From a virus (taxonomy: Duplodnaviria; Caudoviricetes), in the IMG/VR virus record IMGVR_UViG_3300033483_000002, positions 1 to 54,202 of that record: a stretch of DNA of 54,202 nucleotides; one strand, given 5' to 3'. Under the pieces are notes generated by a model. The model did no database searches, had not been told where the DNA came from, and saw only the letters and a program-made list of their open reading frames with translations. Position numbers and translations under genes: made by a program. Positions 2,892 to 42,603 of this stretch are shown one piece after another; position 1 is the first letter of the stretch, and the number at the start of each line of letters is the position of its first letter.

Positions 2892-2964
2892 TTAATCGTT
2901 TAATTACGTATAATAACTAGTTGTATGCCATGTCAATTTTCTTTTGAATTATAAGGGGCGCAAT

Positions 2965-3222
2965 ATGATCATTGGTACTGGTAAAGAACTTGTTTCGTTT
3001 GCGGAACGGCATGGAGCTATTATATCTCAGCACATTTGGGAAGCATTAACCGACTTGGATAAATGCGCCCCTAAATCTGTGGTAGAAAATTGCCACAGCA
3101 CACAACAGCGCTATGCCAAAATTGCCGCTGAACTTGAACAGTGCGCTGTGGATATGAACAGCGATAAACTTATTCCGATAGTTAGTAACCTTAACGAGTG
3201 GGCGCGGCAACTTCGGCAGTAG
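2965..3222 (+). CDS. Cassette 1 hypothetical protein
   Basis: AAGGGG RBS then ATG 2965; ends RQLRQ inside the right arm of attC-like site 1. Confidence 0.7.
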   Translation: MIIGTGKELVSFAERHGAIISQHIWEALTDLDKCAPKSVVENCHSTQQRYAKIAAELEQCAVDMNSDKLIPIVSNLNEWARQLRQ

Positions 3223-3236
3223 CGCAAACGTTGGCA
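3100..3236 (+). repeat. attC-like site 1
   Basis: ACACAAC-A-GCGCTA-TGCC-AAAA-TTGCCGC ... GCGGCAA-CTTC-GGCA-G-TAGCGC-AAAC-GTTGGCA. Confidence 0.8.
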
Positions 3237-3291
3237 AAAATAACCGGCGAGTCTTTTATTATAGGCCACACTTTTCGAAAGGAAACATTTT

Positions 3292-3558
3292 ATGCGCAAG
3301 CAATTTGAGATGACACCCGATGAGCTTAAGGAGCTTTTGGAATCATGCAAACCTGTTCCGATGATTATGTTGCAGTGCGGAACACCTCACTCTCCACAAG
3401 AAAACGCTAACCGTGCGTGGCAGTCGCTCGGAAATAAAAGAGGTTTCGTTTGGGATACCGTTCAACCTGTTCCCGGTTTGGGAATGTCATTTTTCACAGC
3501 AGAGGAATGCGCGGCGGAACAAGTGGAATCGCCGGTTACTTCTGCCAACAAGACATAG
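3292..3558 (+). CDS. Cassette 2 hypothetical phage protein
   Basis: AAAGGA RBS; 88 aa (PQENANRAWQSLG..GF.WDTV.P); stop lies in the left arm of site 2. Confidence 0.75.
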   Translation: MRKQFEMTPDELKELLESCKPVPMIMLQCGTPHSPQENANRAWQSLGNKRGFVWDTVQPVPGLGMSFFTAEECAAEQVESPVTSANKT

Positions 3559-3606
3559 CAGTTCACTTCGTCAATTGGAAACTGCTGCTATGCCAGTCCG
3601 TTGCAC
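3543..3606 (+). repeat. attC-like site 2
   Basis: TGCCAAC-AAGA-CATAGCAGTT ... AACTGC-TGC-TATG-CCAGTCC-GTTGCAC. Confidence 0.7.
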
Positions 3607-3641
3607 GCAATTTTGCGGCGACCATTTTGGAGGCAGTGAGG

Positions 3642-3908
3642 ATGCATACAGTTAATTTTGAATTAAACAATAGACTTATAAGGGCAACATTAGAATGTTC
3701 TCCTGAAGAATGGTCGCGTATTCTCACTGCGGTACAAGGGGAGCGCCGCAAAACAGTTCGGGCGAAGCGCCCCGCGCAACACACGCAGCCGAAAATTTGC
3801 CAGCACCACCGGTATGGTACTAAATGTGTGTTCAATAGGGAGTGGAACGGTATCAAAATTATGTGCTCTCACAAGCCATGTGCTGTCAAACTTCCGGCGA
3901 GTGCGTGA
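3642..3908 (+). CDS. Cassette 3 hypothetical protein (Cys/His-rich C-terminus)
   Basis: GGAGG RBS upstream of ATG 3642 (MHTVNFEL...); track start 3450 would cross the cassette boundary. Confidence 0.65.
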   Translation: MHTVNFELNNRLIRATLECSPEEWSRILTAVQGERRKTVRAKRPAQHTQPKICQHHRYGTKCVFNREWNGIKIMCSHKPCAVKLPASA

Positions 3909-3919
3909 GCACGTTGGTG
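3774..3919 (+). repeat. attC-like site 3
   Basis: GCGCAAC-A-CACGCA-GCCG-AAAA-TTTGCCAGCAC ... GTGCTGTCAAA-CTTC-CGGC-GAG-TGCGTG-AGCAC-GTTGGTG. Confidence 0.8.
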
Positions 3920-4055
3920 TCAATAAATTTTGCTCTTTTAATTATAATCGGGGCGATAGAATGGCAGTAGTAGTGCGGTCGCGCCAAACGAGCCTGTGGG
4001 TGTAATCCCCAAGCATTTTCGCCCTCTTTACATTATGGTGGCAAAATTTACATGC

Positions 4056-4111
4056 CACCAACAGGCGCAGCCCGACATTAAAACGATTGGGCGTGTGCCA
4101 TGACGTTAGAA
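4056..4111 (+). repeat. attC-like site 4
   Basis: CACCAAC-A-GGCGCA-GCCC ... GGGC-G-TGTGCC-ATGAC-GTTAGAA. Confidence 0.75.
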
Positions 4112-4150
4112 GAAACTCCGGTTGCTCCGGAACGAATTAGAGGTAGCGCA

Positions 4151-4396
4151 ATGTCAATACAAATGAAAAGGTGTAAAAAACACGGTTTGTGCAAACACAA
4201 ACTTATTCCCTTTTGCGAACTGTGCGCTACTGAATATTGGGAATCCGCTCCCTCCGTATCTTCTAACAGTCAAAGCGATGAAATTATCGCTGACATTAAG
4301 GAAGTGGTGCAGTCGTGGTTTAAATGTAACGATGATCTTTCGCATAGAGAATGTGATATACTAAACAGTGTTGTCAAATGTTATAAGAGGCGATAA
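4151..4396 (+). CDS. Cassette 5 hypothetical Cys/His-rich protein
   Basis: GAGG RBS, ATG 4151; CKKH..CKH...CELC. Confidence 0.65.
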   Translation: MSIQMKRCKKHGLCKHKLIPFCELCATEYWESAPSVSSNSQSDEIIADIKEVVQSWFKCNDDLSHRECDILNSVVKCYKRR

Positions 4397-4423
4397 CTTC
4401 ACGCATTTGGCAACACGTTGGTT
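4261..4423 (+). repeat. attC-like site 5
   Basis: TTCTAAC-A-GTCAAA-GCG-ATGAAA-TTATCGC ... GCGATAA-CTTCA-CGC-A-TTTGGC-AACAC-GTTGGTT. Confidence 0.8.
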
Positions 4424-4464
4424 GAAATGCCGGTTTTGAAAACCTTTAATTATAGGGGCGCGCA

Positions 4465-4992
4465 ATGAAAGCTGAAAGTGCAATGTTTACAATCACTATA
4501 GATAATCGCTTTTTAGAAGTAAACGCTTTAATTACCGAACGTGAGGGGATGGTTGCCGAAAATCGCTTCTGGCGTGAACGGGGTGAAGAACCGCATTATA
4601 CTATCGAGCATTTTCGCGAGACAGCAAAGAAGATGCGCGCCCTGAAAACTGAGGAAACAAAACCGGCACATCAACCAACCAGCATACATTTGTCAAACGT
4701 TGCACGCAATTGGCAATTCACAGTATTGGAGGTTTTAATGCTTGACAGTGATTTAAATGCGGTAGAACAGTTCATTATAAAAACATCAGATTATGGTCCT
4801 TTGTTATGTGCGTTTTATCGCATTAAAAAAGTGGCTTTGGAATCTTGCCAACAGTCCGGCGAAGCGCCCGTGCAACAGCTAAAGGCTGAAATTGCCGCTC
4901 TTGCAAATAAGATTGATCTTGCTTGGACGGCATGTGATTTTAATGAACATCATCGATTAACGGAGCGAATGCGGCAACTATCAGCCGTTTAG
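4465..4992 (+). CDS. In-frame fusion of cassette 6 and cassette 7 genes (second start ATG 4738)
   Basis: AGGGG RBS at first start; GGAGG RBS and in-frame ATG at 4738 follow the collapsed site 6; ends RQLSAV. Confidence 0.7.
   Translation: MKAESAMFTITIDNRFLEVNALITEREGMVAENRFWRERGEEPHYTIEHFRETAKKMRALKTEETKPAHQPTSIHLSNVARNWQFTVLEVLMLDSDLNAVEQFIIKTSDYGPLLCAFYRIKKVALESCQQSGEAPVQQLKAEIAALANKIDLAWTACDFNEHHRLTERMRQLSAV
4673..4705 (+). repeat. Collapsed (33 bp) attC-like site 6
   Basis: AACCAAC ... AAAC-GTTGCAC retained, inner stem missing. Confidence 0.6.
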
Positions 4993-5005
4993 CAACACGT
5001 TGTAA
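4870..5005 (+). repeat. attC-like site 7
   Basis: GTGCAAC-A-GCTAAA-GGCTGA-AA-TTGCCGC ... GCGGCAA-CTA-TCAGCC-G-TTTAGC-AACAC-GTTGTAA. Confidence 0.8.
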
Positions 5006-5017
5006 ATAGGAGCGCAA

Positions 5018-5263
5018 ATGATCGAACAGTTTCATAATTTAAAATCATGGGCACCGGATAATCAAGAGTTGGCCCTTAAAGTAAATGAGGTTATTTGCGC
5101 TCTGAATTCAGTTGAACTCGCTCAACAGCATCTAACAGGCAATAACACGGCGGAAGCCTTGCCCAAAGTGGAAATTACGCCTTGTGGAGATGCTAACTGT
5201 TCTTTCGTAAAGGTATACCATAAGTGTAAGGGGGTATCTTGCCCTCAATTTAAATCGGCGTAA
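5018..5263 (+). CDS. Cassette 8 hypothetical protein (C-terminal Cys cluster)
   Basis: AGGAG RBS, 81 aa. Confidence 0.65.
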   Translation: MIEQFHNLKSWAPDNQELALKVNEVICALNSVELAQQHLTGNNTAEALPKVEITPCGDANCSFVKVYHKCKGVSCPQFKSA

Positions 5264-5289
5264 CTTCTGTTATTGCCGATCCGTTGTTT
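5130..5289 (+). repeat. attC-like site 8 (left arm interrupted by about 23 nt)
   Basis: ATCTAAC-A-GGCAATAACA-[insert]-GAAATTACGCC ... GGCGTAACTTC-TGTTATTGCC-GATCC-GTTGTTT. Confidence 0.7.
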
Positions 5290-5324
5290 GCAATTTCGCT
5301 CTAAAATTTGATTGGAGGTTTGCC

Positions 5325-5558
5325 ATGACGGGCGAATGTCAATTAGCGATACGAGCGTTAGATAATTCAAACATATGTTATGTGCGCGACCTTTGGGAAG
5401 CATGGCAAACAGTTAAGGCGGAACTCGCTCAACTGTCGCATAACACAGGCAACCCGAAATTGCCTTGTCAAAAGTGTGCAATTCCAGATCCTTTCAGTTC
5501 ACTCTGGAATAAATTTTGGAATTTTTGCCCATGGTGTGGACGGCAACTTCGGGCGTAG
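5325..5558 (+). CDS. Cassette 9 protein with C-terminal zinc ribbon
   Basis: GGAGG RBS; CQKC...FCPWCG; ends RQLRA. Confidence 0.7.
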   Translation: MTGECQLAIRALDNSNICYVRDLWEAWQTVKAELAQLSHNTGNPKLPCQKCAIPDPFSSLWNKFWNFCPWCGRQLRA

Positions 5559-5573
5559 CCGGAACCGTTATAC
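5438..5573 (+). repeat. attC-like site 9
   Basis: GCATAAC-ACA-GGC-AA-CCCGAAA-TTGCC ... GGCAA-CTTCGGG-CGTA-GCC-GGAACC-GTTATAC. Confidence 0.75.
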
Positions 5574-5620
5574 GAAAAATTGCTTTTAAATATATTATAA
5601 ATTTTTTACTAAGAGGTTTT

Positions 5621-5848
5621 ATGAGTAGTCGGTTGTCAATTGGTAAAATGATTAGATCGTGTTATTTACTATTAATGTCGTTTTTGTTATATATTTCTAC
5701 TTTCGGTTACGTGACGAATATGGTTAACTTTGCCAAGTGTGATTTCGAGACACCGTGCAATGCCGAGATATGGTGTGGCGTTGGTATTATTATTCCACCA
5801 ATAGGAATTGTGGAAGGGTTAATCAGCATTCGTAACGGTAAAAAATAA
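5621..5848 (+). CDS. Cassette 10 small membrane protein
   Basis: GAGG RBS, ATG 5621; two hydrophobic segments flanking CDFETPCNAE. Confidence 0.7.
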   Translation: MSSRLSIGKMIRSCYLLLMSFLLYISTFGYVTNMVNFAKCDFETPCNAEIWCGVGIIIPPIGIVEGLISIRNGKK

Positions 5849-6019
5849 ATTAAGGTACACACAAATAATCGTATAACAGACGCAGGTGTTACAGACTCGG
5901 ACGAAATCCGATGGATTGACATTGGTTGTGATGACATCATTGATGTGGAGTTCACTTATGATAGTGATAATCGAGAGGTTTCAGTTTCGTAATGCCATTG
6001 AATAAAAGAAGTAATTAAT

Positions 6020-6544
6020 ATGATTTTCAACTGTAAACAATGCAGTCTTCATAAATTCAGGAAAAATATTGTACAAGGAAGGGGTTCTCTTCCAGCGGAC
6101 TTATGTATAGTAGGTGAGGCACCAGGAAAAACAGAAGATATGCTTTGTGAAGCATTTATAGGTCAAGCTGGACAACTACTTAATCAAATAATTTATGATA
6201 CTTGTAATAATGTTGGTATTGTCCCTTTAATTTATTTTACAAATACAGTTTTATGCAGACCAACAGATCGAATTGGAGGGGATAACAGGCAACCGACGAA
6301 AGAAGAAGTATTTCTTTGCAGTCAGAATGTACAAGAAATAATTGCAAAAACAAAAGCAAAAGAGTTCATCCTTGCTGGAGATATTGCAGAAAAGTATATG
6401 AAGAGTTCAATCAAACATTATACCAAAATAATGCATCCTTCTGCAATATTACGAAATGGCGGAAAATCAAGCGGATATTATCTTGAAACAGTTAGGAAAT
6501 TGGAAACAGTTTTCAGGAGGTTGAAGAATGAAGAAAGAAAATAG
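6020..6544 (+). CDS. Uracil-DNA glycosylase, family 4 (Fe-S)
   Basis: CxxC N-terminus, VGEAPG, F.GQAG.LL, TNTVLCRP, NRQP, HPSAILR. Confidence 0.9.
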   Translation: MIFNCKQCSLHKFRKNIVQGRGSLPADLCIVGEAPGKTEDMLCEAFIGQAGQLLNQIIYDTCNNVGIVPLIYFTNTVLCRPTDRIGGDNRQPTKEEVFLCSQNVQEIIAKTKAKEFILAGDIAEKYMKSSIKHYTKIMHPSAILRNGGKSSGYYLETVRKLETVFRRLKNEERK

Positions 6545-10482: not shown

Positions 10483-12471
10483 ATGATAATGTTCAATATT
10501 CAACCATTGATTGCACGATATAAAAAAATAATGGATTTTGTTTCGCTCGACGTAGAAACAACCGGTTTCTATCCATATTTAGGAGATAGGATTTTTTCTT
10601 TTTGCTGGGGAAATGATCTTACATGCATGGTATTGCGATTAGATAAACCTATTATTAAAGCAATAAGCACTAATGATTTACTGAAATGTATTACAACTGA
10701 TAATAATATTTTTGATTATATGCAAGATAGATCATGTAAATCAGTTGAAAGCAATTTTCAATTATTAAAAGATATGTTTTCAAAAGGTTACAGAAATCAA
10801 GGTTTAATAATTCACAATTGCAAGTTTGAAAAAGGATTCTGCAAAGTTCATGGAATAGAATTTCCTGAAGATTTAATAGTACATGATACAATGTTGCAAT
10901 CAAGGGAATTAGATAATCAATCACCGTCTCACAGCCTTGATAGATTATGCTATAAATTAGGAGTTGATCCACTGGGGAAAATAGCAGATTGTGACAAGAA
11001 AGTTGAAGAAGAAAATAAAAAATTAGGTGGTTATCAATTTGTAAATGTAAATCTTATGACCGAATATCAGCTATATGATGCTGTACGGCCTCTTCTTCTT
11101 CATTCCGTTTTTTGGCCTGAAATCCTAAAGAGTGAAAAACTTACAGAAGATTATATATGGGAAGTGAAAACAGCTCTTGATACACAAGAAATTGAAGAAG
11201 CAGGAGTTCCGATACATAGAGAAAATTGTGAAAATCTTATGAAGAAGCTTGATAAAGAAATTGAAGCAATGCAGCACGAATCATTTAATATCTTGGAAGA
11301 ATACATTAATCTTTCTTCCGATGATCAGATAAGAAGAATTCTTTTCAAGAAACTACAATTTCCGATAGTTGCTTTTTCTGAAAACGGTACACCTAAAACC
11401 GACAAAGATACAATTTTCAATCTGAAGGAAACAATCAATCATCCTATTCTTGATCTGATAATAAAATGGAGATCATATACGGATGGAAAAGGAAACGTAG
11501 AGTCATATTTAAAAGTTGCCGATGAAAAAGGAAAGGTGCATACCACTCTTAATACTTGTCAAGCTCGCACTCATAGACAATCCTCTTCACATCCACCAAT
11601 GCACGGAGTATCGAAAGAAGAGGCAATGAAGAATCCTTTTCCAGTGGCTGCAAGGCAATGCTTTCGATGTCCTGAAAATGCAATTCTTTTTCTTCCTGAT
11701 TATTCCGGAATAGAAATGCGATTAATAGCAGAAGCATCAGGAGAAGAGGAGTTGATTAAAATGTTTCTTGATGACCCGATTAATGCAGATCCGCATACTA
11801 TTGCAGCGGAATTATTTTATGGTGATTTATTTACAGATAGAGCACAATGTTTTGATTTTTTCATAAATAAAGATCCTTTGAATAAAAGTATAATAAATAA
11901 AATAGGTATTGATGCTGCATATAAAAAGTTCAGAAAGATAATGAGAGGTTCTGCAAAAAATGCTTCATTCGCAAAAGCATATATTGCAAATCTAATAAAA
12001 GTTTCCAAAACGTTAATGCTTACAGTTGAAGAAGCAGAACCCGGTTACTGGAGATACAAAGAAAGATGGCCAAAAGTATTTGATTATAGTAAAACGGTTG
12101 CACATGAAGCGAAAGAACAGGGATTTGTTGAAACACCTTTTGGTGTACAAATGAGTGCTCCAAGAGATCAACTTTACATTTTAGGAAATTATAAAATTCA
12201 ACATATGGCGGCAAAGATTCTTAAAAGGGGGATTGTCAGATGCACGGATTATTTTCACAAGGAATTTAATAGCGAAGTAAAAATAATTCTTGATATTCAC
12301 GATGAATTGATAATAAGTTTTCCAAGAAAGTTCATGAGCAGAAGGGAAGATTTCATAAGTAATGTCACTCGAATGATGACGGAATGTGAAGAAATAAGAG
12401 TGCCACTTTCAGTAGAGTGGAAATTTACAACTACAACATGGGATAAAGCAAGGAAAGTGGAAATAAAATGA
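10483..12471 (+). CDS. polA: DNA polymerase family A with 3'-5' exonuclease
   Basis: ExoI DVETTG, ExoII HNCKFE, ExoIII YQLYDA; motif A DYSGIEMR, motif B RGSAKNASF...Y, motif C IHDEL. Confidence 0.92.
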   Translation: MIMFNIQPLIARYKKIMDFVSLDVETTGFYPYLGDRIFSFCWGNDLTCMVLRLDKPIIKAISTNDLLKCITTDNNIFDYMQDRSCKSVESNFQLLKDMFSKGYRNQGLIIHNCKFEKGFCKVHGIEFPEDLIVHDTMLQSRELDNQSPSHSLDRLCYKLGVDPLGKIADCDKKVEEENKKLGGYQFVNVNLMTEYQLYDAVRPLLLHSVFWPEILKSEKLTEDYIWEVKTALDTQEIEEAGVPIHRENCENLMKKLDKEIEAMQHESFNILEEYINLSSDDQIRRILFKKLQFPIVAFSENGTPKTDKDTIFNLKETINHPILDLIIKWRSYTDGKGNVESYLKVADEKGKVHTTLNTCQARTHRQSSSHPPMHGVSKEEAMKNPFPVAARQCFRCPENAILFLPDYSGIEMRLIAEASGEEELIKMFLDDPINADPHTIAAELFYGDLFTDRAQCFDFFINKDPLNKSIINKIGIDAAYKKFRKIMRGSAKNASFAKAYIANLIKVSKTLMLTVEEAEPGYWRYKERWPKVFDYSKTVAHEAKEQGFVETPFGVQMSAPRDQLYILGNYKIQHMAAKILKRGIVRCTDYFHKEFNSEVKIILDIHDELIISFPRKFMSRREDFISNVTRMMTECEEIRVPLSVEWKFTTTTWDKARKVEIK

Positions 12472-13241
12472 ATATTGAATTGAATAAAATATATCATGGT
12501 GATTGTTTGGAAGTCATGAAAAGCATTAAAGATAAATCTATTGATATGATTCTTTGTGATTTACCTTATGGTACTACTGCTTGTAAATGGGATGTCGAGA
12601 TTCCTTTTGAACCTTTATGGAAACAATATCTACGAATTATAAAAGATAAAAGTGCAATTATTCTTACATCAATACAGCCTTTTACAAGTTTTTTAATTAA
12701 TTCAAATATTAAATATTTTAAATGTGAATATATATGGCAAAAAACAAAAGCGACAAATTATATAAAAGCAAATGAAATGCCAATGAAATATCATGAAAAT
12801 ATTTTATTATTTGGAAAGCATAAAATTAATTATTATCCTATAATGATAAAAGGAAAACCATATATTAAAGAAGCAAAATCAGAATCAAATATTAAATGTA
12901 TATTTAAAGATACAAGAAAAATAGGTAGTATAAATGTAAATGATGGATATAGATTTCCTTCATCTATTATAAGAATATCAAATGACAATCATTTTTCTTT
13001 ACATCCTACACAAAAACCAGTTCCACTTTTTGAATATTTAATTAAAACATATACAAAAGAAAATGAAGTTGTTCTTGATAACTGTATAGGAAGTGGCACA
13101 ACTGCAATCGCATGCATTAATACTAATAGACAATATATAGGCATAGAAAAAGATGATCACTATTTTGAAGTTTGCAATGAAAGAATCAGGAAACATTTAT
13201 TATTAAGAAAGTATCAACAGAAATGGAAGGTTTATAAATGA
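12468..13241 (+). CDS. DNA amino-methyltransferase, beta class (probably m6A)
   Basis: DLPY, HPTQKP, LDNCIGSGTT. Confidence 0.92.
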   Translation: MNIELNKIYHGDCLEVMKSIKDKSIDMILCDLPYGTTACKWDVEIPFEPLWKQYLRIIKDKSAIILTSIQPFTSFLINSNIKYFKCEYIWQKTKATNYIKANEMPMKYHENILLFGKHKINYYPIMIKGKPYIKEAKSESNIKCIFKDTRKIGSINVNDGYRFPSSIIRISNDNHFSLHPTQKPVPLFEYLIKTYTKENEVVLDNCIGSGTTAIACINTNRQYIGIEKDDHYFEVCNERIRKHLLLRKYQQKWKVYK

Positions 13242-14361: not shown

Positions 14362-16483
14362 TAATTTGATAGCATTCAAACAGCATGGTTTCACTCCTTC
14401 CAGTGTGTCAGGAGAAAATCAAGTTGTTGGAAATTGCATTTTTTGTAACGGAAAATCAAAAAATCATAAGGAAGGTTCATTTTTTATTAATGTCGAAAGT
14501 AAAATGTGGGATTGTAAACTATGCGGAAAAGAAGGAGGATATAAAACTTTCATAACTGAATTGATTGAACAAGGAAAAGAAAATTTTAAGGGAACTGATG
14601 CTCTATGGTTGGCAAAAAATAGAGGATTGAAAACAAAGACATTGATTGATAACAATGTAGGTTATAATCCTTTAATGAACCATTATATAGTTCCAGCAAT
14701 TGATATTAATGGGAAAGAAATTTACAGTTTAAAGATATTTTCATGGTCAAAAAACGGAACAAAACATCGAAGTATTACCGCTGGAATGAGCACCGCTTGC
14801 CTGGGTTGGGAAAAATTATCAAAGCCTTTCAATGTATGTTATATTCTTGAAGGAGAGTGGGATTACTTCACATGGTATGAAATGAGTAAGTCAATTAATT
14901 TTTCGCTTGATACAATTTTTATTAGTTTACCACAAGCAACCGGGTTTAAAGATGATTATGTCAATTATTTTAAGAATAAAGACGTAAAGGCTTTATTGCA
15001 TAATGATTATGATCGACAAGTTGGTAATAAAATGGTTTTTGGTGCTGGTATTCAAGGAATGATAAAGATATATAATAAACTTTCTCAAGTGGCAAGCCGT
15101 CTAAATTTTATTTATTGGCCGGAAGATAAAAAAGATGGTTATGATGTTCGTGATTTATATAATGATTTTGACAATAATGCAAGAAAAACATTTGACTTTA
15201 TTGATAATAATCTTCAAAAGTATCCTCCTAAAATAAAACTACCTTCTTCTGATAAGCAAAAATTAATAAATAAACCAATAATACAAATTTCTCAAATACC
15301 ATTAAATCAACGATACACTGGAAGCGGAATTGATTGTATTGATGTTTACAATATATACGAAAAATGGTTGTTACTTCCGTCTACTGATTTGATTGATGTA
15401 TCTATTGGTTGTGTAATTGGCAATAGGCTTCCTGGTGATCCTATATGGTTGCAGCTTGTTGGTCCTTCCGGTTGTGCAAAATCGGTAATATGCATGGCAC
15501 TTGATTGCCATTTTGATATAGAGGCAATTGATACATTGACGCCAGCAACTCTAATTAGTGGTAGTACTACTGCAGGAGGTGGAGATCCTTCTCTACTTCC
15601 AAAGTTGCATGGAAGAATACTTGATATTAAGGATTTGACAACTATCTATGAAATGAATTCAGTTGCAAGAAATGAAATATTCGGGATATTTCGTTCTGCA
15701 TTCGATGGACATTACTCAAAACCGTTCGGAAACGGTATGATGACGCGTTCCGGGAACAGCAAATTCGGTTTTATTGCCGGCGTTACACATGCAATTGAGC
15801 AATACACTGAAGGAGATACGGCATTAGGCACAAGATTTCTTTTGTATAAAATTCAGTATGGTAATGTGCATAATATTTTAAAACAGATTGACAAAAATCT
15901 TGATGAAGAATTCCTGAATAATAAGAGTATGAAAGCAGAACTTAAAGATGCTTTTAAAAGAGCAATTGACTTTAACTATAATATTCAAAGTATAGAACTT
16001 GATGATAAAATCCTTGAACAATTGCGATACTTAAGTATTATCATTGAAATGACAAGGGGAACAGTATTGCAGGATCATTTTACGAAAGAAATTACTTATA
16101 GTCCGATGACTGCATTACCAACAAGAAGCTATGTACAATTAAGAAAAGAATTGACAGGAATAATGCTATTCAGGAAAGTAAATGTTCCTGATAAAGAAAG
16201 TATGAAGATAATTTGTGATATAGCATCGGGGACTATACCTCTTTCCAGAGAAAAAATATTATCAATTTTATGGAAAGCAAGATTGAAAGGTGAGGAAAAA
16301 ATAGAGTTAGGGATGTTAAGTAAAATATTGAAGCTTCCATCTATAACTTGTCAACGACAAATTGACAAGTTGGTTGCACTTGGAACGGTTGAAAAGATTA
16401 ATTTGTCATCAATAAAAACTGCTTATAAACTAACGGAACAGATTATTGAAGCAATTGAAAAGGGAGAAATGTATTCAAAATGA
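14333..16483 (+). CDS. Primase-helicase: Zn finger + TOPRIM + MCM-like AAA+ + winged helix
   Basis: CIFC...CKLC; ILEGEWD, HNDYD, DVRD; LVGPSGCAKS; GTRF; C-terminal helical region. Confidence 0.8.
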   Translation: MLKQEIISHSNLIAFKQHGFTPSSVSGENQVVGNCIFCNGKSKNHKEGSFFINVESKMWDCKLCGKEGGYKTFITELIEQGKENFKGTDALWLAKNRGLKTKTLIDNNVGYNPLMNHYIVPAIDINGKEIYSLKIFSWSKNGTKHRSITAGMSTACLGWEKLSKPFNVCYILEGEWDYFTWYEMSKSINFSLDTIFISLPQATGFKDDYVNYFKNKDVKALLHNDYDRQVGNKMVFGAGIQGMIKIYNKLSQVASRLNFIYWPEDKKDGYDVRDLYNDFDNNARKTFDFIDNNLQKYPPKIKLPSSDKQKLINKPIIQISQIPLNQRYTGSGIDCIDVYNIYEKWLLLPSTDLIDVSIGCVIGNRLPGDPIWLQLVGPSGCAKSVICMALDCHFDIEAIDTLTPATLISGSTTAGGGDPSLLPKLHGRILDIKDLTTIYEMNSVARNEIFGIFRSAFDGHYSKPFGNGMMTRSGNSKFGFIAGVTHAIEQYTEGDTALGTRFLLYKIQYGNVHNILKQIDKNLDEEFLNNKSMKAELKDAFKRAIDFNYNIQSIELDDKILEQLRYLSIIIEMTRGTVLQDHFTKEITYSPMTALPTRSYVQLRKELTGIMLFRKVNVPDKESMKIICDIASGTIPLSREKILSILWKARLKGEEKIELGMLSKILKLPSITCQRQIDKLVALGTVEKINLSSIKTAYKLTEQIIEAIEKGEMYSK

Positions 16484-17367: not shown

Positions 17368-17960
17368 TTGCTTGTGAATATACTGGTTTAGTACGTGATG
17401 CTTTTATAAGAAAAGGTCATGATGCTATATCCTGTGATTTCTTTAAGAGTGAAAGAGAAGGTCCACATTATCAAGGAAACGTATTCAATATTATCAATAA
17501 TGGATTTGATTTAATGATTGCACACCCACCGTGTACTTATCTTTCCAATGCCGGCTTTCATTTAAGTTTGAAAGATTCTTTACGTATGGAAAGATCAAAA
17601 AAGGCGTTCAAGTTTTTCATGGATTTGTATAATTCTGATATAGAAAAAATAGCAATTGAGAATCCTGTTGGAATTGTATCAACATGGTTTCAAAAACCTG
17701 ATCAGATAATAAATCCTTATAATTTTGGAAATATGGAACGAAAGAGAACATGCTTATGGTTGAAAAATCTTCCTTTACTTAAAATAAATAATACAGAAAT
17801 GCCAACTGCATATAATAGTATAATTAGAAAATCAGGAAGAGATAAAGGAAAAATATATAATTATTATTGGCATGATAAAACAAGATCAGGACACGAAAGA
17901 TCAAGAACCTTTCAATGTATTGCTGATGCTTTCGCTGAACAATGGGGAAATATAAAATGA
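17355..17960 (+). CDS. Phage C5-cytosine methyltransferase-like protein (ATT start or lost ATG)
   Basis: (I)KVLVACEYTG.VRDAF...GHDA.SCD, HPPC, ENP, RTCLWL, RSRTF.GIA-like; track begins only at 17514. Confidence 0.75.
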   Translation: MKVLVACEYTGLVRDAFIRKGHDAISCDFFKSEREGPHYQGNVFNIINNGFDLMIAHPPCTYLSNAGFHLSLKDSLRMERSKKAFKFFMDLYNSDIEKIAIENPVGIVSTWFQKPDQIINPYNFGNMERKRTCLWLKNLPLLKINNTEMPTAYNSIIRKSGRDKGKIYNYYWHDKTRSGHERSRTFQCIADAFAEQWGNIK

Positions 17961-18787
17961 TATCTCTTGATACTATCTATAATGAGAACTGCTTAATAAC
18001 TCTTTCCAGAATGCCGGATAAATTCATTGATATGACATTGACTTCTCCTCCTTATGATGGAAGAAGGTCATATGAAGGAGAACATAAATTCGATTTTGAA
18101 GAATTCAAAGCAATTGCAAAGGAACTTTATAGAGTGACAAAAGATGGTGGTGTTGTTGTATGGGTTGTTAATGATGAAACGATAAATTATTGTGAGTCAC
18201 TTACATCATTCAAGCAAGCTATCTATTTTGTTGAAGAATGCAAGTTTAATCTATTGGATACTATGATTTATTATAAGAAATCAACTCTAGTAGCAATGCC
18301 ACCTATTTTAAAAGTAAGATATAATCCTTCTTTTGAGTATATGTTTATATTTAGTAAAGGAATACCAAAAACATTTAATTCTATTAAAATAAAATGTATT
18401 AATGCAGGAAGTCTAAATAATCATTCAACAAGTCGTCAAGTAAACGGAACTTTAAAAAGAGAAATTTTTATTACTCAAGAAACAAAAGTTAAAAATAATG
18501 TTTGGGAAATATTACCTAATGACAATACAGACAATAAGGAAAATGATTCGTTGCATCCGGCCGTATTTCCGAAACATCTGGTTATTGATCACATTAAATC
18601 ATGGTCAAATGAAGGAGATATTGTATATGATCCGTTTTCAGGAAGTGGGACTGTTGCTAAATGCTGTAAATTGATGAATCGAAAATATATAGGTTCTGAA
18701 ATTGTAAAGAAATACTGGTTGTTGGGAAATATAACTCTTAAAAGAACGGATGATAGAAAGAAGGGAAGTGAAATATGGAAAATTTAA
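17957..18787 (+). CDS. DNA amino-methyltransferase, beta class (SPPY, probably m4C)
   Basis: TSPPY, HPAVFP, DPFSGSGT; ATGA overlap start. Confidence 0.9.
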   Translation: MISLDTIYNENCLITLSRMPDKFIDMTLTSPPYDGRRSYEGEHKFDFEEFKAIAKELYRVTKDGGVVVWVVNDETINYCESLTSFKQAIYFVEECKFNLLDTMIYYKKSTLVAMPPILKVRYNPSFEYMFIFSKGIPKTFNSIKIKCINAGSLNNHSTSRQVNGTLKREIFITQETKVKNNVWEILPNDNTDNKENDSLHPAVFPKHLVIDHIKSWSNEGDIVYDPFSGSGTVAKCCKLMNRKYIGSEIVKKYWLLGNITLKRTDDRKKGSEIWKI

Positions 18788-29804: not shown

Positions 29805-30070
29805 TGAAGCAGTTTGCAAGGTATAGTTGGTTGATTCAGTTGATTGCAACGACCGTAATTCTGCTATTTGGTTTTAATTATACGAATGGTAAGAATTGTC
29901 AACTGCTTAATCAGACTGCACTTAAATCGGATAAGAACGAAATGGATATTGTTGAATTACGTAAAACGAATACTATGATTTATGAAGAGATGTTGCGTGA
30001 GATTCATAAAATTGATAAGTCGCTTGAACATCTTACTGTTGACATAGAATATCTAAAAGGAAAGCAATGA
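29804..30070 (+). CDS. Single-TM coiled-coil protein (holin/XhlA-like candidate)
   Basis: N-terminal TM helix plus heptad region. Confidence 0.45.
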
Positions 30071-30999
30071 ATAAATGTTCAAAGATTTATATTGCCGGTC
30101 ATAATGGTCTTGTTGGTTCTGCTTTAATAAGGAAACTTAAAGCAGATGGGTACAATAATATTATCGGTAAATCTCATGTTGAACTTGATTTAACAAACCA
30201 ATATGCAGTTAATAATTTTTTCAAAACTGAAAATCCGGAATATGTTTTTCTCGCCGCTGCAAAAGTAGGTGGTATATACGCCAATAATACATATCCCGCT
30301 GAATTTATATATAGTAATTTACAAATACAAATTAATATTATTGATGCTTGTCATGAATATGGAGTCAGGAAATTATTGTTTCTTGGCTCATCATGCATCT
30401 ATCCGAAATTTTCACCACAACCAATAACAGAAGATTGTCTTCTTTCCGGATCTCTGGAAAAGACCAATATCGCTTACGCTATCGCAAAGATTGCTGGCAT
30501 TATAATGTGTCAATCTTATAATACGCAATATGGTACGGATTTCATTTCAGTAATGCCGACAAATCTTTATGGTCCTAATGACAATTATGATTCGGAAAAC
30601 TCTCATGTACTACCTGCTCTAATTGACCGTATACACAAAGCAAAAATTAACAATCAAGATAGCATAACTATATGGGGAACAGGTAATCCTAAAAGGGAAT
30701 TTCTTTATGTTGGTGATATTGCTGATGCATGTATTCATTTAATGAATAAATATTCAGGAAATGAAATTGTCAATATTGGTTCTGGTGATGAAATATCAAT
30801 TCGTGAACTTGCATATACTATTTCTACTATTATTGGATTTACAGGTAAAATATTATTCGATCAATCAAAACCTGATGGCACACCACGTAAATTGCTTGAT
30901 TGTTCTTTTATTCATTCTCTTGGATGGAAACATAAGATTAGTTTAACTGAAGGAATTAAGAAAACATATGCATCATATTTAGAAGAGATAGATAAATGA
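30067..30999 (+). CDS. fcl: GDP-L-fucose synthase (GDP-4-keto-6-deoxymannose epimerase/reductase)
   Basis: [68 protein letters not shown]. Confidence 0.95.
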
Positions 31000-38626: not shown

Positions 38627-40088
38627 TATGAAAAAAATAATATCATTCTCTTTGTGGGGAAATGAACCATTATACATTAATGGTGCAATAAGCAATATTA
38701 TCAATAGTCAAAAATTCTATCCTGGTTGGATTTGTCGATTTTATATTGATGAATCGATTGATAAAGATCTTCAGGAAAAAATATTGTCTTTTGGTAACAC
38801 TGAAATAAAAATAATGCCAAAAGCAGAAGATGTTTTAGGGATGTTTTGGCGTTTTGCTCCAATGTGGGATGATTTGGAAATTGAACGCTTCATAGTGAGA
38901 GATACGGATTGCCAACCTACAAAAAGGGAAGTTAATGCTGTAAATGAGTGGATTACGAGCGAAAAACCTTTTCATATTATAAGAGATAATCATTACCATT
39001 ATGTTCCTATCCTTGGGGGAACATGGGGTGCTATTCCTGGCTGCATACCTAATATGCAAAAAGATATTAGTGAATTTCTATTGACAGTTCAAGAAACAAA
39101 ATCTCAACATAAGAGCAGGAAGTTTCATGGTGTTGATCAAATATTTCTTTACAATTTTGTATGGCCTATTATTAAAGATAATCATATTGCACATATAAGA
39201 GAAAATGAACCTGTTCTTGTAATGACAGGTAAAGAAATAATTCTTCCACCACTGGAAGAAGGTGGGCATTTTATTGGAATGCCTTGCACTGATATTAATG
39301 GACAATGTACAAGAGTTGAAAGTCATTTGCTTAAAAGCAATTCAATGTTATACAAAAGAATTTGTTTGATGGTCCCAACTTACAAACGAATTGATAGAAT
39401 AGGTAGTTTTATTTCCAGTGTTTATGACACTGTAAGCAATATTGAAAATGTTTGTTTTTCTTTTTGTGTGAATATTAACGATAAGGAAACAAGGGAATTT
39501 CTTAACAGTTATAATTGGCACAATAAGGAATGTTTTGAAATAATTGATGAGGATACAATTCAACCGAATTTATCTCTTTATTTTAATAAAATGTATAAAG
39601 AGACAAAATTTCAAGATGCAATTGTATCAATGTTGGGTGATGATATGATTTTCAAAACTAAAGACTGGGATTTAAGAATTCTTGACATTATAAATAAACA
39701 TGATGGAAAGGCAATAGTTTATTGCGATGATAATTTTACAGCTCATGCATCTTGTGCAGTAAATTTATTTACTGCAAGAAAAGAAATAGTTGAATTGACA
39801 AAAAAGCCTTTCATGTGTGAATACTTCCATGCCGATATGATTGATGCAATATGGACAATGGTAGGAATGATGACGGGAACGATTCATTATCTCTCAGATG
39901 TCATTATTCAACATAATCACTCTTCTGCACAATCTGCTGAATTTTGGGATGATACCTTTAAAAGATTGAATCCTATTCAGAAAGTATGTAGTACAAAAGA
40001 AAATATGAAACTGGCAACTACTTATGCAACATTGTGTGCAAAAAATCTTATTGAGAATGGAGTGGGACATTGGAACATTCTTCAATAA
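38619..40088 (+). CDS. Two-domain glycosyltransferase: KIISFSLWG-family domain plus GT2-like domain
   Basis: N-half is a paralog of the previous gene; C-half has LMVPTYKR, LGDD, IQHNH. Confidence 0.7.
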   Translation: MHNMKKIISFSLWGNEPLYINGAISNIINSQKFYPGWICRFYIDESIDKDLQEKILSFGNTEIKIMPKAEDVLGMFWRFAPMWDDLEIERFIVRDTDCQPTKREVNAVNEWITSEKPFHIIRDNHYHYVPILGGTWGAIPGCIPNMQKDISEFLLTVQETKSQHKSRKFHGVDQIFLYNFVWPIIKDNHIAHIRENEPVLVMTGKEIILPPLEEGGHFIGMPCTDINGQCTRVESHLLKSNSMLYKRICLMVPTYKRIDRIGSFISSVYDTVSNIENVCFSFCVNINDKETREFLNSYNWHNKECFEIIDEDTIQPNLSLYFNKMYKETKFQDAIVSMLGDDMIFKTKDWDLRILDIINKHDGKAIVYCDDNFTAHASCAVNLFTARKEIVELTKKPFMCEYFHADMIDAIWTMVGMMTGTIHYLSDVIIQHNHSSAQSAEFWDDTFKRLNPIQKVCSTKENMKLATTYATLCAKNLIENGVGHWNILQ

Positions 40089-40627
40089 TATTATCTATTC
40101 TTATATGCTCCCTTGAAGAAAGAAAAAAGGAACTTGGGTTTATATTTGAAAAGTTACTTCATCAAAGATTGTCTTATGCATCAAAAATTGAAGTATTAAT
40201 TGAATCAGATAATCGAGAAATAACTATAGGGGAGAAAAGAAACATCCTTCTTTCCAGAGCACAAGGGGAATACATTTGCTTTGTTGATGACGATGATGAT
40301 ATATCCAATGATTACATCGAATCAATAATGAAGGCATTGGAAAGTAAGCCTGATTGTGTCGGTATTGAAGGCACAATTGACTATATGGGAATTAAAGGAA
40401 TATTTAAACACTCTCGTCAATTTCAATCATGGTATACCGGGCCTGATGCATTTTACAGAACGCCTAATCACCTTAATCCTGTAAAAAGAGAAATCGCCTT
40501 AAGAATAGGATTTCCACCACAATCATTTGGTGAAGATCAAATATATTCCAATGGAATAAAAAGAATGTTGAAAACTGAAGTGTATATCAATCATCCAATT
40601 TACTTTTATAAGAAAGAGAAAGAATGA
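40070..40627 (+). CDS. Glycosyltransferase family 2
   Basis: LSILICS, IGEKRN..L..A.GEYICFVDDDD, GED. Confidence 0.85.
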   Translation: MEHSSIILSILICSLEERKKELGFIFEKLLHQRLSYASKIEVLIESDNREITIGEKRNILLSRAQGEYICFVDDDDDISNDYIESIMKALESKPDCVGIEGTIDYMGIKGIFKHSRQFQSWYTGPDAFYRTPNHLNPVKREIALRIGFPPQSFGEDQIYSNGIKRMLKTEVYINHPIYFYKKEKE

Positions 40628-41700
40628 ATTTCTTTTCAATTGATCAGCATATTTCCGTTATCGCAGATATTCGATATATTCTTAATCAATTGGGGCATAC
40701 TGTAAAGGAAATATCCTTAAGCGGTCATGCATCTATTATCGGTCGTCCTACAGGTAATATACCGGAATTGAATGGCAATAATTGGTGTAATGTTATCAAT
40801 CAACAGCAATTCGATTCTTTCTATAGTAAATATAAAAAAGAACTTGAAAAATACGACGGTTTTATTTGTTGCTATCCACCAATATTCTCTATGTTGTATC
40901 GTTCATCCGATAAACCGATAATTATACAAATTCCTATTCGTTATGAGTGTTGTTGTGAGCATAATTTGCCGTTATGGGAAGAGTTCAATAAATTTTTGCA
41001 AAAAGGAGTTGATGAACATAGAATATTTCTTTGTGCAAACAACTTGTATGATAAAAAATATGCTGAAGGTTTTATCGATCGACCTGTAAGATATATTCCT
41101 TCACTTTGCGAATACACTGGAATGAGTTATAACCCTGTTTACGATATGTTTCTTTACTTCGGATTTTTTAGGGTAAAGGAACAATCAGGGAGAATGATAT
41201 ACAAGCATGATGCAATGAAAGCTGGTCACGCATGGCAAAATATCTCTGAATACAAAGGATGTATCCATTATCCTTATAACGTTTCAACTATGTCAATATT
41301 TGAGCAATATACAGCAAATATTCCTCTATTCTTTCCGACAAAAAGATTTTTAATGGAAATGTTTCTTGATAAAATACCTATTCTTCATCAGTTGAGCTGG
41401 CAACAACAGGGAAATAATGGAATACCAAAATCACAAATGGGCAATTCCTTCCAGTGGGACCCGAATAATTTCTCTGATTTCAATTGTGTTTCTCATTGGA
41501 TTGATAACGCAGATTTTTATAGTGAAAATATGAAATGTATTCGTTATTTTGACAATGTACACGATAGAGATGATATTTTAGGACTTGATAAAGAAACATT
41601 ATTAAGTATAAGCAATGAAATGAAGGAACATAACAGGGAAAGAAAATCTTACGTGTATAATGAATGGTATAAACTGATGGATGAAATAGAATGTCTATGA
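40624..41700 (+). CDS. Putative GT-B-like glycosyltransferase
   Basis: YKGCIHYPYNVSTMSIFEQY.ANIPLFFP pattern; cluster context. Confidence 0.5.
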   Translation: MNFFSIDQHISVIADIRYILNQLGHTVKEISLSGHASIIGRPTGNIPELNGNNWCNVINQQQFDSFYSKYKKELEKYDGFICCYPPIFSMLYRSSDKPIIIQIPIRYECCCEHNLPLWEEFNKFLQKGVDEHRIFLCANNLYDKKYAEGFIDRPVRYIPSLCEYTGMSYNPVYDMFLYFGFFRVKEQSGRMIYKHDAMKAGHAWQNISEYKGCIHYPYNVSTMSIFEQYTANIPLFFPTKRFLMEMFLDKIPILHQLSWQQQGNNGIPKSQMGNSFQWDPNNFSDFNCVSHWIDNADFYSENMKCIRYFDNVHDRDDILGLDKETLLSISNEMKEHNRERKSYVYNEWYKLMDEIECL

Positions 41701-41996
41701 CTTTTAATAATAAAAAGTTAACTATTTGTGAGGTCTTACGGCAAATAAATGATAGAGTTCAAGGGGATGCATTTTCTGATGTTCGGGATATGATTGCACT
41801 TGCTGAACAAATGGCAAAGAAAATAGTTTCAAAATTACGTGAGTACAATGAAAAAGATAATCCGGAATTGTGGTTTGATAAAGAAACAAGGGACTCTTTT
41901 GATAGAGATATGGAAACATACTTAATAGGGAATCCGGAAAGAGCTGAAAGATTATTGTCAAAGGAAATAAATGAAAACAGCAGCAGTACTAATTAA
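41691..41996 (+). CDS. Hypothetical protein
   Basis: Overlapping both neighbours. Confidence 0.55.
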   Translation: MSMTFNNKKLTICEVLRQINDRVQGDAFSDVRDMIALAEQMAKKIVSKLREYNEKDNPELWFDKETRDSFDRDMETYLIGNPERAERLLSKEINENSSSTN

Positions 41997-42603
41997 TATT
42001 GATAACCAGCCTTTTGCTGATTTGTCTGTAAAAGCTAATCAGAAATATTATTCTCATTTTGGAATTGAATTGAGACAAATAAAAGGACTATCTGATAAAG
42101 CAAAGAATTATAAGCCGAAATGGATGGCAAGTATTGCATTCGATGTATTTCCTGATCTTGATTTTGTTATAGTTCAGGATTTGGATATTATACCATGTAA
42201 TCTTAAGTATAATATTATGGATTTTTTAATGTTAAGGGAACTTAACTTTGCAAAATCATATACACGAATAGGGATGAAAATTACAACTGCACCTTTCCCT
42301 TATTTTCAATATAATGCCGGTTTGTTTGCATACAATAAACATTTTCAAGAGATGTTCGATTCTATTTTTCAATATGGAAAAGATGATCCGGAAAATTTTG
42401 GAACCTGTGATCAATATTATATTAATAAATATATTGGAGAAAATAGCCTGTATGTAAATGAAATACCGATGATTTTTAATACATTTTATCATTCTTCCAT
42501 TGATTTTGATAGAGTTGCTTTTTGTCATTATACAAATTCATTGCCGAGTGAGTGCAAACTTGATTTCATTGAACAATATCACCCAAAGGAAATGTTGTGT
42601 TGA
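41971..42603 (+). CDS. GT-A glycosyltransferase (GT8/GT34-like)
   Basis: QDLDI DxD, YNAG, DQYYIN, FN, HY. Confidence 0.7.
   Translation: MKTAAVLINIDNQPFADLSVKANQKYYSHFGIELRQIKGLSDKAKNYKPKWMASIAFDVFPDLDFVIVQDLDIIPCNLKYNIMDFLMLRELNFAKSYTRIGMKITTAPFPYFQYNAGLFAYNKHFQEMFDSIFQYGKDDPENFGTCDQYYINKYIGENSLYVNEIPMIFNTFYHSSIDFDRVAFCHYTNSLPSECKLDFIEQYHPKEMLC

Follow-up and report, generated by a model that had tools for sequence, protein, structure and literature searches.

A putative integron-type array of nine gene cassettes with hairpin junctions in a tailed phage

The window analysed here is the whole of IMG/VR virus record IMGVR_UViG_3300033483_000002, a linear sequence of 54,202 bases with a CheckV completeness of 92%, whose terminase, portal and capsid genes mark it as a tailed phage. 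Positions 2920-5566, inside the replication module, probably hold an integron-type array of nine mobile cassettes that are foreign to the phage and worked by a host recombinase; for this explanation as a whole we put the probability at about 0.68. An earlier note on the letters alone had described ten cassettes, at 2920-5877, with no integrase in view and operated in trans by the integrase of a host or a distant phage. The idea of a GTT-bounded cassette array with structured junctions is supported by covariation within the junctions and by arrays of the same family beside bacterial tyrosine recombinase genes. Of the ten units, the first nine are bounded at GTT as described, and the tenth probably belongs to the phage itself. 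That a host integrase works the array in trans is, like the mobility of the cassettes, something we infer.

Read on the + strand, each cassette would comprise TTG with a cassette-specific arm, a small open reading frame (ORF), a complementary arm running up to YAAC, a hairpin site and a closing CG. Most likely, the host provides a tyrosine recombinase of the Xer/IntI group that would recognise the site as a folded single strand, and strand exchange would take place at G|TT or within a few bases of it. Cassettes would be excised as circles, the two arms closing into one long hairpin, and each circle could then enter another site or a simple AAC…GTT target. In this way a cassette pool common to phages and bacterial chromosomal arrays would furnish the phage with small accessory genes.

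All ten unit starts proposed in the earlier note, GTT at 2920, 3230, 3600, 3913, 4105, 4417, 4699, 4999, 5283 and 5567, are exact, and the AAC box it saw in the units was located as YAAC in every one of the ten (C at 3106, 3549, 3780, 4062, 4267, 4679, 4876, 5136, 5444 and 5877). At nine of the ten starts the GTT is preceded by C, giving CGTTR, and at 2920 by A. The nine CGTTR stand directly after a stop codon, each with a YAAC box 19-149 nucleotides (nt) upstream; the box reads YAACA in eight of the nine junction sites and once more at 5873-5878. Imperfect inverted repeats with bulges do follow the AAC box, at nine junctions, and all of their bulges are on the GTT-side arm. That each unit carries about one small ORF holds generally, but unit 4 has no convincing one, ORF 6 lacks a stop and ORFs cross the large sites. 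The units and sites are as follows.

2912-2923, strand not applicable: upstream junction ATAAC-TA-GTTG, with the palindrome AACTAGTT at 2915-2922; likely backbone insertion point
2920-3229, + strand: cassette 1; ORF 2965-3222, through site 1; arms 2920-2942 and 3084-3106 (23 nt, 83% complementary); arm duplex -19.1, rank 1; GC content (GC) 0.41/0.49
3103-3233, - strand: site 1, a CAACA…CGTTG hairpin; inner part 123 nt; stop TAG within the 6-bp stem; arm pairing -25.2; bottom-strand z -2.91, 0 of 200 shuffles as good; 99 bits with the covariance model, of whose training set the site is a member
3230-3599, + strand: cassette 2; ORF 3292-3558; arms 3230-3253 and 3526-3549 (24 nt, 88% complementary); arm duplex -22.8, rank 1
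3546-3603, - strand: site 2, a short hairpin; inner part 50 nt; arm pairing -11.1, rank 1; fold no better than shuffles (z -0.9)
3600-3912, + strand: cassette 3; Cys-rich ORF 3642-3908, through site 3; own-arm pairing weak (rank 3)
3777-3916: site 3; inner part 132 nt; arm pairing -26.1; 58 bits; bottom-strand z -2.11
3913-4104, + strand: cassette 4; no convincing ORF; arms 3913-3933 and 4041-4062; arm duplex -18.4, rank 1
4059-4108: site 4; inner part 42 nt; weak, with a model E of 0.078 and a fold that is not significant
4105-4416, + strand: cassette 5; ORF 4100/4151-4396; arms 4105-4116 and 4256-4267
4264-4420: site 5; inner part 149 nt; 53 bits
4417-4698, + strand: cassette 6; ORF from 4465 with no stop before 4699; arms 4417-4438 and 4658-4679 (22 nt, 91% complementary); arm duplex -24.5, rank 1
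4676-4702: site 6, minimal; inner part 19 nt; no preference for the cognate arm
4699-4998, + strand: cassette 7; ORF 4738-4992, through site 7
4873-5002: site 7; inner part 122 nt; arm pairing -22.6; 70 bits; bottom-strand z -2.52; similar to one site in viral locus L056
4999-5282, + strand: cassette 8; ORF 5018-5263; extended arms absent (arm rank 5)
5133-5286: site 8; inner part 146 nt; arm pairing -15.0; 36 bits
5283-5566, + strand: cassette 9; zinc-ribbon-like ORF 5325-5558, through site 9; the GC-rich block stops at 5566
5441-5570: site 9; inner part 122 nt; 60 bits; bottom-strand z -2.44
5567-5877, + strand: unit 10; ORF 5621-5848, for a small hydrophobic protein as judged by eye; arms 5567-5582 and 5862-5877; arm rank 1, -8.8; followed on its 3' side by a minimal TAAC-N10-GTTA at 5874-5891

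ORF 6 runs in frame into ORF 7 (ATG at 4738), which makes 4465-4992 a fusion frame of 175 aa across a cassette junction.

The large sites share one architecture. On the bottom strand, sites 1, 3, 7 and 9 read 5'-YAACG, a bulge of 3-4 nt, a 6-bp stem, a bulge of 1-3 nt, a stem of 12-15 bp, a variable loop and an unbroken return arm with a TGTTR end, and sites 5 and 8 follow this layout in their arm duplexes. Unpaired bases number 0-1 on the AAC-side arm and 3-5 on the GTT-side arm, and all bulges lie on the latter. Measured from YAAC to GTTR, sites 1, 3, 7 and 9 span 130-140 bp, sites 5 and 8 154-157 bp, and sites 2, 4 and 6 27-58 bp. The bottom strand has a pair of conserved G.T wobbles, the first next to AAC/GTT and the second within GAAGTT/AATTTC of the 12-15 bp stem. 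The suspicion that A/C mismatches of the top strand are wobbles on the bottom strand was correct, since 33 of the 34 aligned sites have the wobble at columns 6/243 and 27 of them have it at columns 78/216.

Because the thermodynamics of single sites are only modest, the case for these structures rests on covariation. It was measured on 34 large sites, six from this phage and 28 from eight other loci, aligned with plain MAFFT; a few rows of the alignment are out of register, which makes the figures conservative. In a structure of 26 pairs, 79.1% of cells are paired, as compared to 65.7 ± 1.0 in shuffles (0/500) and 32-49% when the partner columns are slid. Changes on both sides of a pair account for 123 cells over the 34 sites, against 49.7 ± 5.3 in shuffles. 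Compensatory change is seen in 19 of the 26 pairs, with AACG and GTT invariant in all 34 sites, and a single instance can be followed between site 8 and the homologous site in L085, where GGCAATAACA/TGTTATTGCC has become GGCGATAACA/TGTTATCGCC. Judged by these substitutions, the hairpin structure is under selection.

The arms of one site pair at a mean of -16.1 kcal/mol, as compared to -8.4 (standard deviation, sd, 3.3) for arms taken from different sites, and the cognate arm is the best in its row for seven of nine sites, the exceptions being sites 4 and 6. Whole-site folds were compared with 200 dinucleotide shuffles for four large sites of 136-146 nt and for short sites 2 and 4. The both-strand folding proposed as a check came out in part: the four large sites gave bottom-strand z values of -2.9, -2.1, -2.5 and -2.4 (0, 7, 3 and 4 of 200 shuffles as good) and top-strand values of -1.2, -0.6, -2.0 and -2.2, but sites 2 and 4 were at shuffle level, neither strand folding better than shuffles. 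The bottom strand folds better in six of eight sites compared. Our own hairpin scanner, which looks for YAAC…CGTTR with an arm duplex of -11 kcal/mol or below and a paired R box, returned five + strand matches in the 54-kb genome, all within the array. Its one match outside, on the - strand at 15311-15448, is borderline (-11.4 kcal/mol, at the threshold), drew no response from the covariance model and is probably due to chance.

A second kind of complementarity joins the two ends of most units. In units 1, 2, 4, 5 and 6 the reverse complement of the first 32 nt, counted from the G of GTT, finds its best match within the same unit, ending …AAC, over 12-24 nt; the complementary arms measure 8 nt in unit 7 and 16 nt in unit 10. 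When the first 26 nt are paired with the 26 nt before each YAAC, the unit's own partner is best in its row in seven of ten units (mean -14.3 vs -6.9, sd 2.3). The arm sequences differ among units, yet are complementary inside each unit. Own-arm pairing recurs in other phage arrays (10 of 19 units in G001, four of seven in L056) and in bacterial ones (three of four in L256, six of 14 in L258). Where cassette 5 can be compared with a diverged homologue in L038, its arms have changed from GTTAGAAG/CTTCTAAC to GTTAGCA/TGCTAAC with the pairing kept. An integron cassette whose circle had been opened at G|TT would show just this kind of complementarity, although here it extends far beyond the usual 7 bp.

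Composition sets the nine cassettes apart from the phage. The block had been described as GC-richer than its flanks, and this is true of the bodies of units 1-9 (0.39-0.49, against 0.321 elsewhere) and not of unit 10 (0.318); GC at third codon positions is 0.34-0.48 in the array and 0.19-0.22 in the three backbone genes measured. Composition switches to the phage level exactly at 5566/5567, and it is because the GC of unit 10 equals that of the phage that we regard this unit as probably native and not a cassette. At the upstream edge, backbone ending in …ATAAC-TA is followed by the GTTG of the array, and if the left flank were joined to unit 10, a perfect 12-bp palindrome, ATAACTAGTTAT, would be re-formed. 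An identical AAC-TA-GTTG marks the upstream edge of the array in the unrelated 254-kb phage G001, where GC rises from 0.27 to 0.59. Over 226 kb of array loci there are just two copies of AACTAGTT, one at the upstream edge of each of these two arrays. The array sits between the RuvC-like gene and the probably native unit 10, at an AAC-TA-GTT palindrome that is likely to be its insertion point. Insertion of cassettes by IntI outside integron platforms, at simple genomic attG sites with a GWT core, has been described (Loot et al., 10.1101/2022.09.11.507474), and this would offer a ready route for seeding an array at AAC-TA-GTT. That work concerns E. coli, IntI1 and canonical attC sites, whereas here the target is a short palindrome common to two phages.

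The sites belong to a large family. A two-arm pattern made from sites 1 and 9 has at least 123 matches in at least 119 viral stretches. Among the matches listed, 113, as divided by a cut-off on loop GC, are a highly conserved 130-nt element with an AT-rich loop that is intergenic in AT-rich phages, and ten have GC-rich loops with coding through them, as in this phage. The AT-rich-loop element was found by blastn in 13 Flavobacterium phage records, between DNA methylase genes. A covariance model, a check that the earlier note had suggested, was built solely from GC-rich coding-loop sites and also recovers AT-rich-loop sites elsewhere, in L076, L065 and Flavobacterium phage mumin6-1 (E = 1e-8 to 1e-5); since the model spans both forms, we treat them as one family. 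The model, R1, is blind to short sites (2, 4, 6 and those of P12002L), so that its silence there means little. In L076, the one AT-rich-loop locus examined, the genes are on the opposite strand relative to the site, which argues against a role at the mRNA level. Large arrays also exist: in G001 the stretch at 150.5-157.5 kb, a GC island (0.44-0.48, with flanks of 0.25-0.38), contains at least 20 sites on one strand, and further arrays hold about 12 sites (L056) and five sites (G004). Over 1190 pairwise comparisons among 110 site regions, similarity ends at GTTR in 414 (666 within +2 to +5) and begins at YAAC in 382 (594 within -3 to -5); the cargo genes of the arrays are otherwise unrelated. 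Polaribacter phage P12002L (L129) carries intergenic YAACA-stem-loop-stem-bulge-CGTTA hairpins beside methylase genes, which may be the attC1/attC2 of Qi. DNA methylase genes recur beside sites of the family, at L124 11633-12655 (G001), in L128 (mumin6-1) and in L129 (P12002L); the phage's own methylases, at 12468-13241 and 17942-18787, have no flanking sites of the family according to the covariance model.

As the earlier note had observed for the region in view, no integrase accompanies the array: PF00589 (tyrosine recombinase) has no match in the whole 54-kb record, nor in any of the ten array-bearing virus records examined (this phage and nine others), three of which are complete genomes with terminal repeats, and the controls for this search were positive in 14 of 14 genomes. 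PF00239 (serine recombinase) and PF01797 (Y1) are likewise without a match in this record, and in 0 of five array-bearing virus records tested. The RuvC-like neighbour was considered as the enzyme of the array and was not found in five other array phages, in a search run without a positive control.

Enzymes do stand beside the bacterial relatives. The two-arm pattern also matches many prokaryote records, those listed including genomes of Flavobacterium, other Bacteroidota, Spirochaetia and Fibrobacterota, with some of the matches due to chance or to an unrelated Pseudomonas gene. In all four bacterial genomes examined (G010-G013, of which G010 is a Flavobacterium and G012 and G013 are Spirochaetia) a tyrosine recombinase gene adjoins a site or the start of an array. 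G013 has the layout of an integron: its recombinase gene points away from a series of + strand ORFs, and a site follows every one of these. The best match of the four recombinases is NF040815, 'tyrosine recombinase/integron integrase', at 191-223 bits against a cut-off of 220, which one of them passes. IntI comes second, at 183-201 bits against a cut-off of 265, with an alignment that falls into two pieces and omits the IntI-specific insertion; a true IntI control scores 454 bits. A matching site in G014 has a true IntI at a distance of 1 kb. In G012 (Spirochaetia), C1:1,849,020-2,177,488 contains 34 same-strand matches to the 3' arm of the site over about 330 kb; the series begins 1.2 kb past an Xer/IntI-like recombinase gene, and a broken true IntI is also present at 412 kb. 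ORFs read through the sites in the viral arrays and not in G013, the one bacterial array checked. The pdif sites of Xer-dependent modules are 28-bp double-stranded sequences of alternating orientation and not hairpins of 60-160 nt, and nothing resembling a dif site was identified in this work. By score, the enzymes next to the bacterial arrays are most like Xer, a family whose members move gene modules (pdif, PMC7399989) or act on folded single strands (XerCD phage integration, PMC3442271).

Contigs from other samples bear on where the cassettes are joined. Two contigs from a different sample of the wetland study agree with cassette 5 over 4101-4419, each with one mismatch (about 99.7% identity); contig A has 73 unmatched bases on its left, contig B stops one base past the GTT at 4417-4419, and both are unbroken across the YAAC at 4267. 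A contig from a third sample tracks cassette 2 and site 2 and diverges 11 nt past the G at 3600. These breaks at GTT are suggestive of variation there, in short contigs of low depth from a single study. Two placements of the crossover would suit the arm geometry. One at G|TT or within a few bases of it is rated higher than one at YAA|C because of the GC block at 2920-5566, the ORFs that enter the following hairpin and the contig breaks in other samples, which for cassette 5 come at the GTT boxes 4105 and 4417. The alternative of a crossover at YAA|C with the + strand recombined, which is the canonical handedness, was rated lower on these grounds, and the preferred placement is in conflict with that handedness. 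Some wetland contigs match only site arms, at 3077-3108, 3753-3799, 4685-4711 and 4873-4905, and one carries a site-7-like hairpin with a loop 62 nt shorter, so that further members of the family exist in that habitat.

Three class 1 attC sites read from a plasmid integron served as the control for comparison with known integrons. Starting from R'' (GCCTAAC), their top strand passes through a spacer of 5 nt, an L'' that has an extra base, the loop, L' and a spacer of 6 nt to R' (GTTAGAC), in agreement with the geometry in Nivina 2016. The sites described here keep the AAC/GTT ends, with YAAC and CGTTR at all nine junctions, together with an imperfect hairpin of conserved structure and diverse sequence, loops of 19-149 nt and a cassette start complementary to its own AAC box (seven of ten units). 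The attC consensus RYYY/RRRY is not consistently kept (GTTGGCA, GTTGCAC, GTTGTAA and others). For attC lengths of 57-141 bp, four sites fall inside the range, two are longer (154-157 bp) and three measure 27-58 bp. The earlier note's attribution to the canonical R''-L''-VTS-L'-R' geometry does not hold: the unpaired spacer of 5-6 nt on both arms of class 1 sites is absent, the extra bases are on the L'-R' arm (the 5' arm of the bottom strand) and not in L'', the R stems are 8-24 bp and not 7, and ORFs read through the sites. The + strand of these sites thus resembles the bottom strand of a canonical attC. Textbook attC membership fails on the spacer and on the arm of the extra bases; every functional hallmark that can be seen in sequence is present, counted as AAC/GTT cores, a structure-conserved hairpin, own-arm complementarity, one-gene spacing and a link to recombinases.

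Among described systems, the closest are clusters of attC sites lacking integron integrases (CALINs), which resemble this array in their one-gene units separated by hairpins with no integrase nearby (Cury 2016, PMC4889954; Neron 2022, PMC9024848; Qi 2023, PMC9892861). Qi 2023 (PMC9892861) reports CALINs in virulent phages, five of six phage attC sites being recombined by IntI1; the CALIN reported for P12002L has two methylases, and one of its sites was recombined by IntI1. DNA methylase cargo is shared with the related arrays here (G001 and the Flavobacterium and Polaribacter phages). A phage CALIN is defined there by at least two predicted attC sites, and the largest in the available text has three (PMC9892861), as compared to nine in this phage and at least 20 in G001. 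A complete integron differs in having intI beside attI and the array, with no PF00589 match here or in nine other virus records, and the recombinases beside same-family bacterial arrays differ from those of integrons in lacking the IntI-specific insertion. Phage CALINs are already published, and we regard the nine-cassette array as a variant of that kind with non-canonical sites. In our literature search neither the site family nor a phage array of comparable size turned up, and Qi 2023 (PMC9892861) came nearest.

Several observations weigh against reading 2920-5566 as an active array. Canonical attC geometry is unmet, and the bulges are on the arm that bears the proposed crossover; by the canonical strand rule IntI would pick the + strand and cut YAA|C, in conflict with the GTT boundaries. 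The advantage of the bottom strand is small, its arm duplexes being better in four of nine sites, equal in three and worse in two, and sites 2, 4 and 6 are weak in arm pairing, covariance model and folds. The recombinases next to the bacterial arrays do not reach the cut-off for IntI, and they are not oriented uniformly with respect to the sites from one bacterial genome to another. No recombination products were seen, in assembled contigs only, the source contig being without joints, and two metagenome scans for cassette 5 gave no match. No close phage relative was found for a comparison of cassette gain and loss: blastn with the array block (and with the G001 array) gave no match in isolated phages, the RuvC-like and SNF2 proteins led to no close relative among isolated phages and IMG/VR contigs, and the best tblastn matches of the DNA polymerase in isolated phages are at about 26% identity or less.

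The main alternative to an active array is a fossil one, taken in by a one-time capture from a bacterial array or by a single insertion, its hairpins inert and nothing shuffled within the phage. It would account for a GC that is uniform over nine cassettes, a phage without a recombinase, a source contig without joints, the ORF-less unit 4, the lost stop of ORF 6 and the degenerate look of sites 2, 4 and 6. We nonetheless consider it unlikely: each edge coincides exactly with a box and the upstream junction is that of G001, neither of which is to be had from illegitimate capture; compensatory changes have preserved the stems among phages; cassette 5 has a different neighbour in another sample; and ORFs read through the sites in viral arrays and not in G013, which argues that the cassettes evolved in phages. 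Still less probable is that the hairpins are selfish elements lodged between or inside small genes that are not cassettes. Miniature inverted-repeat transposable elements (MITEs) and elements like repetitive extragenic palindromes (REPs) are short and non-coding, with terminal inverted repeats and a target duplication, and leave the flanking genes unaffected. The similarity between copies confined to YAAC…GTTR with sharp ends, the near-identity of AT-rich-loop copies over many contigs and the inverted-repeat-like arms of hairpins of 100-160 nt would suit such an element. It would leave unaccounted for the cassette-specific complementary arms that flank the genes, the foreign GC common to those genes, the variable coding loops on conserved stems and the one-gene-spaced arrays beside tyrosine recombinases; no target duplication was seen, and no transposase was found (PF01797, 0 of five records).

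A regulatory origin, in which the repeats are RNA or promoter-terminator modules shuffled by homologous recombination, is improbable to a further degree. Its precedent is the promoter early stem-loop (PeSL) of T4-type phages (PMC2839356, PMC4122927), where small novel ORFs in variable regions are accompanied by repeated stem-loops thought to mediate shuffling; the small early-type genes in a replication module and the TTATAGGSGCGC-like motif upstream of several ORFs fit that picture. PeSLs, however, exchange promoter and terminator motifs by homology, and here the terminator signature is absent: there is no T-tract, sigma-70-like hits number 6 against 7.5 ± 2.9, and terminator-like hits 6 against 3.5 ± 2.0, none at the + strand junctions, where promoter-like hits show no enrichment either. 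The core conserved between units, about 5-10 nt, is too short for homologous exchange, the stems covary, and the bacterial arrays of related sites adjoin tyrosine recombinases. The better-pairing strand is antisense to the genes here and sense at the AT-rich-loop sites of L076, which argues that the structure is not tied to mRNA. An Rfam search gave a single match at chance level. Lastly, the units would be tandem paralogues if they were duplicated copies of one small gene whose shared sequence is a coding motif, as the constant frame in which six large sites are translated at L' might suggest. This is very improbable and is effectively refuted by an all-against-all blastp of the nine ORFs, whose best E is 0.39; no Pfam or PHROG family is held in common, and a protein motif cannot explain covariation of the stems.

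It has long been asked how phages acquire and exchange the many small orphan genes in their variable regions; in bacteria, integrons are the textbook device for this. Previous integrase-less phage arrays, in the available text of PMC9892861, are few and short clusters of at least two predicted sites. What is added here is a nine-cassette array in a tailed phage without an integrase, the occurrence of its site family in at least 119 viral stretches, where one related array has 20 cassettes or more, and a link from these sites to bacterial arrays beside Xer/IntI-like recombinases. Since the hairpin family occurs in many phages and beside bacterial recombinase genes, phages seem to share a swappable pool of accessory genes. 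If the sites are active, phages join a cassette economy with their hosts, and the cargo becomes a catalogue of candidate genes for host takeover and anti-defence; the odd geometry of the sites would also test current rules of strand choice by integron-type recombinases. More tentatively, and with less confidence than in the array itself, it is possible that these sites mark a distinct and widespread cassette system of phages (from 37-kb siphoviruses to 250-kb jumbo phages), Bacteroidota and Spirochaetota. Such a system would have attC-like hairpins of opposite handedness, long cassette-specific R stems, sites that can be translated as gene tails and Xer-like recombinases without the IntI insertion, and through it virulent phages might trade small genes, probably aimed at the host, by means of a host enzyme and from a pool of about 47% GC.

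The cassette ORFs had been thought to look like phage hypotheticals, and at least one cargo gene is indeed an ordinary small phage gene: the ORF of cassette 2 has relatives in four other viral contigs (L001-L004), limited to residues 1-71 and without hairpin flanks. Its product belongs to a small-protein family, CKPVPMIMLQCG…SPQENAN, and these four contigs are unrelated and of very different GC. Against Pfam and PHROGs, the cassette ORFs gave nothing above threshold. In the six large sites the translation frame at L' is constant (CGN YAA CTT C, then stop), and the stop codon of read-through ORFs lies in or near the 6-bp stem. As a result of the fixed frame, unrelated proteins of different phages have a similar C-terminal tail (…KIAxxME…WARQLRAL*, also …RQLRQ* and …RQLRA*), which is found in this phage at the positions below and also in L016, L061, L070, L075 and L056.

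3103-3222: shared C-terminal tail
4873-4992: shared C-terminal tail
5441-5558: shared C-terminal tail

A TTATAGGSGCGC-like motif stands 30-45 nt past the GTT start and just 5' of the ATG in several cassettes, and also in G001 (L124). It may be a cassette-borne start signal; a generic sigma-70 scan did not flag it. Its positions in this phage are as follows.

2946-2964: TTATAGGSGCGC-like motif
3260-3270: TTATAGGSGCGC-like motif
3939-3957: TTATAGGSGCGC-like motif
4443-4460: TTATAGGSGCGC-like motif

The replication module around the array further holds a PD-(D/E)XK nuclease, AAA_24, a family A DNA polymerase and two N6_N4 methylases, in addition to the genes nearest to it.

699-2018: SNF2 helicase
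2382-2891: RuvC-like resolvase (weak assignment)
6020-6544: uracil-DNA glycosylase (UDG)

With one exception, all ORFs of at least 150 aa are on the + strand. Among the structural genes, 30067-30999 and 40070-45357 encode an NAD-dependent epimerase, several glycosyltransferases and a radical-SAM-like protein, and together these suggest sugar modification of the virion or of the DNA.

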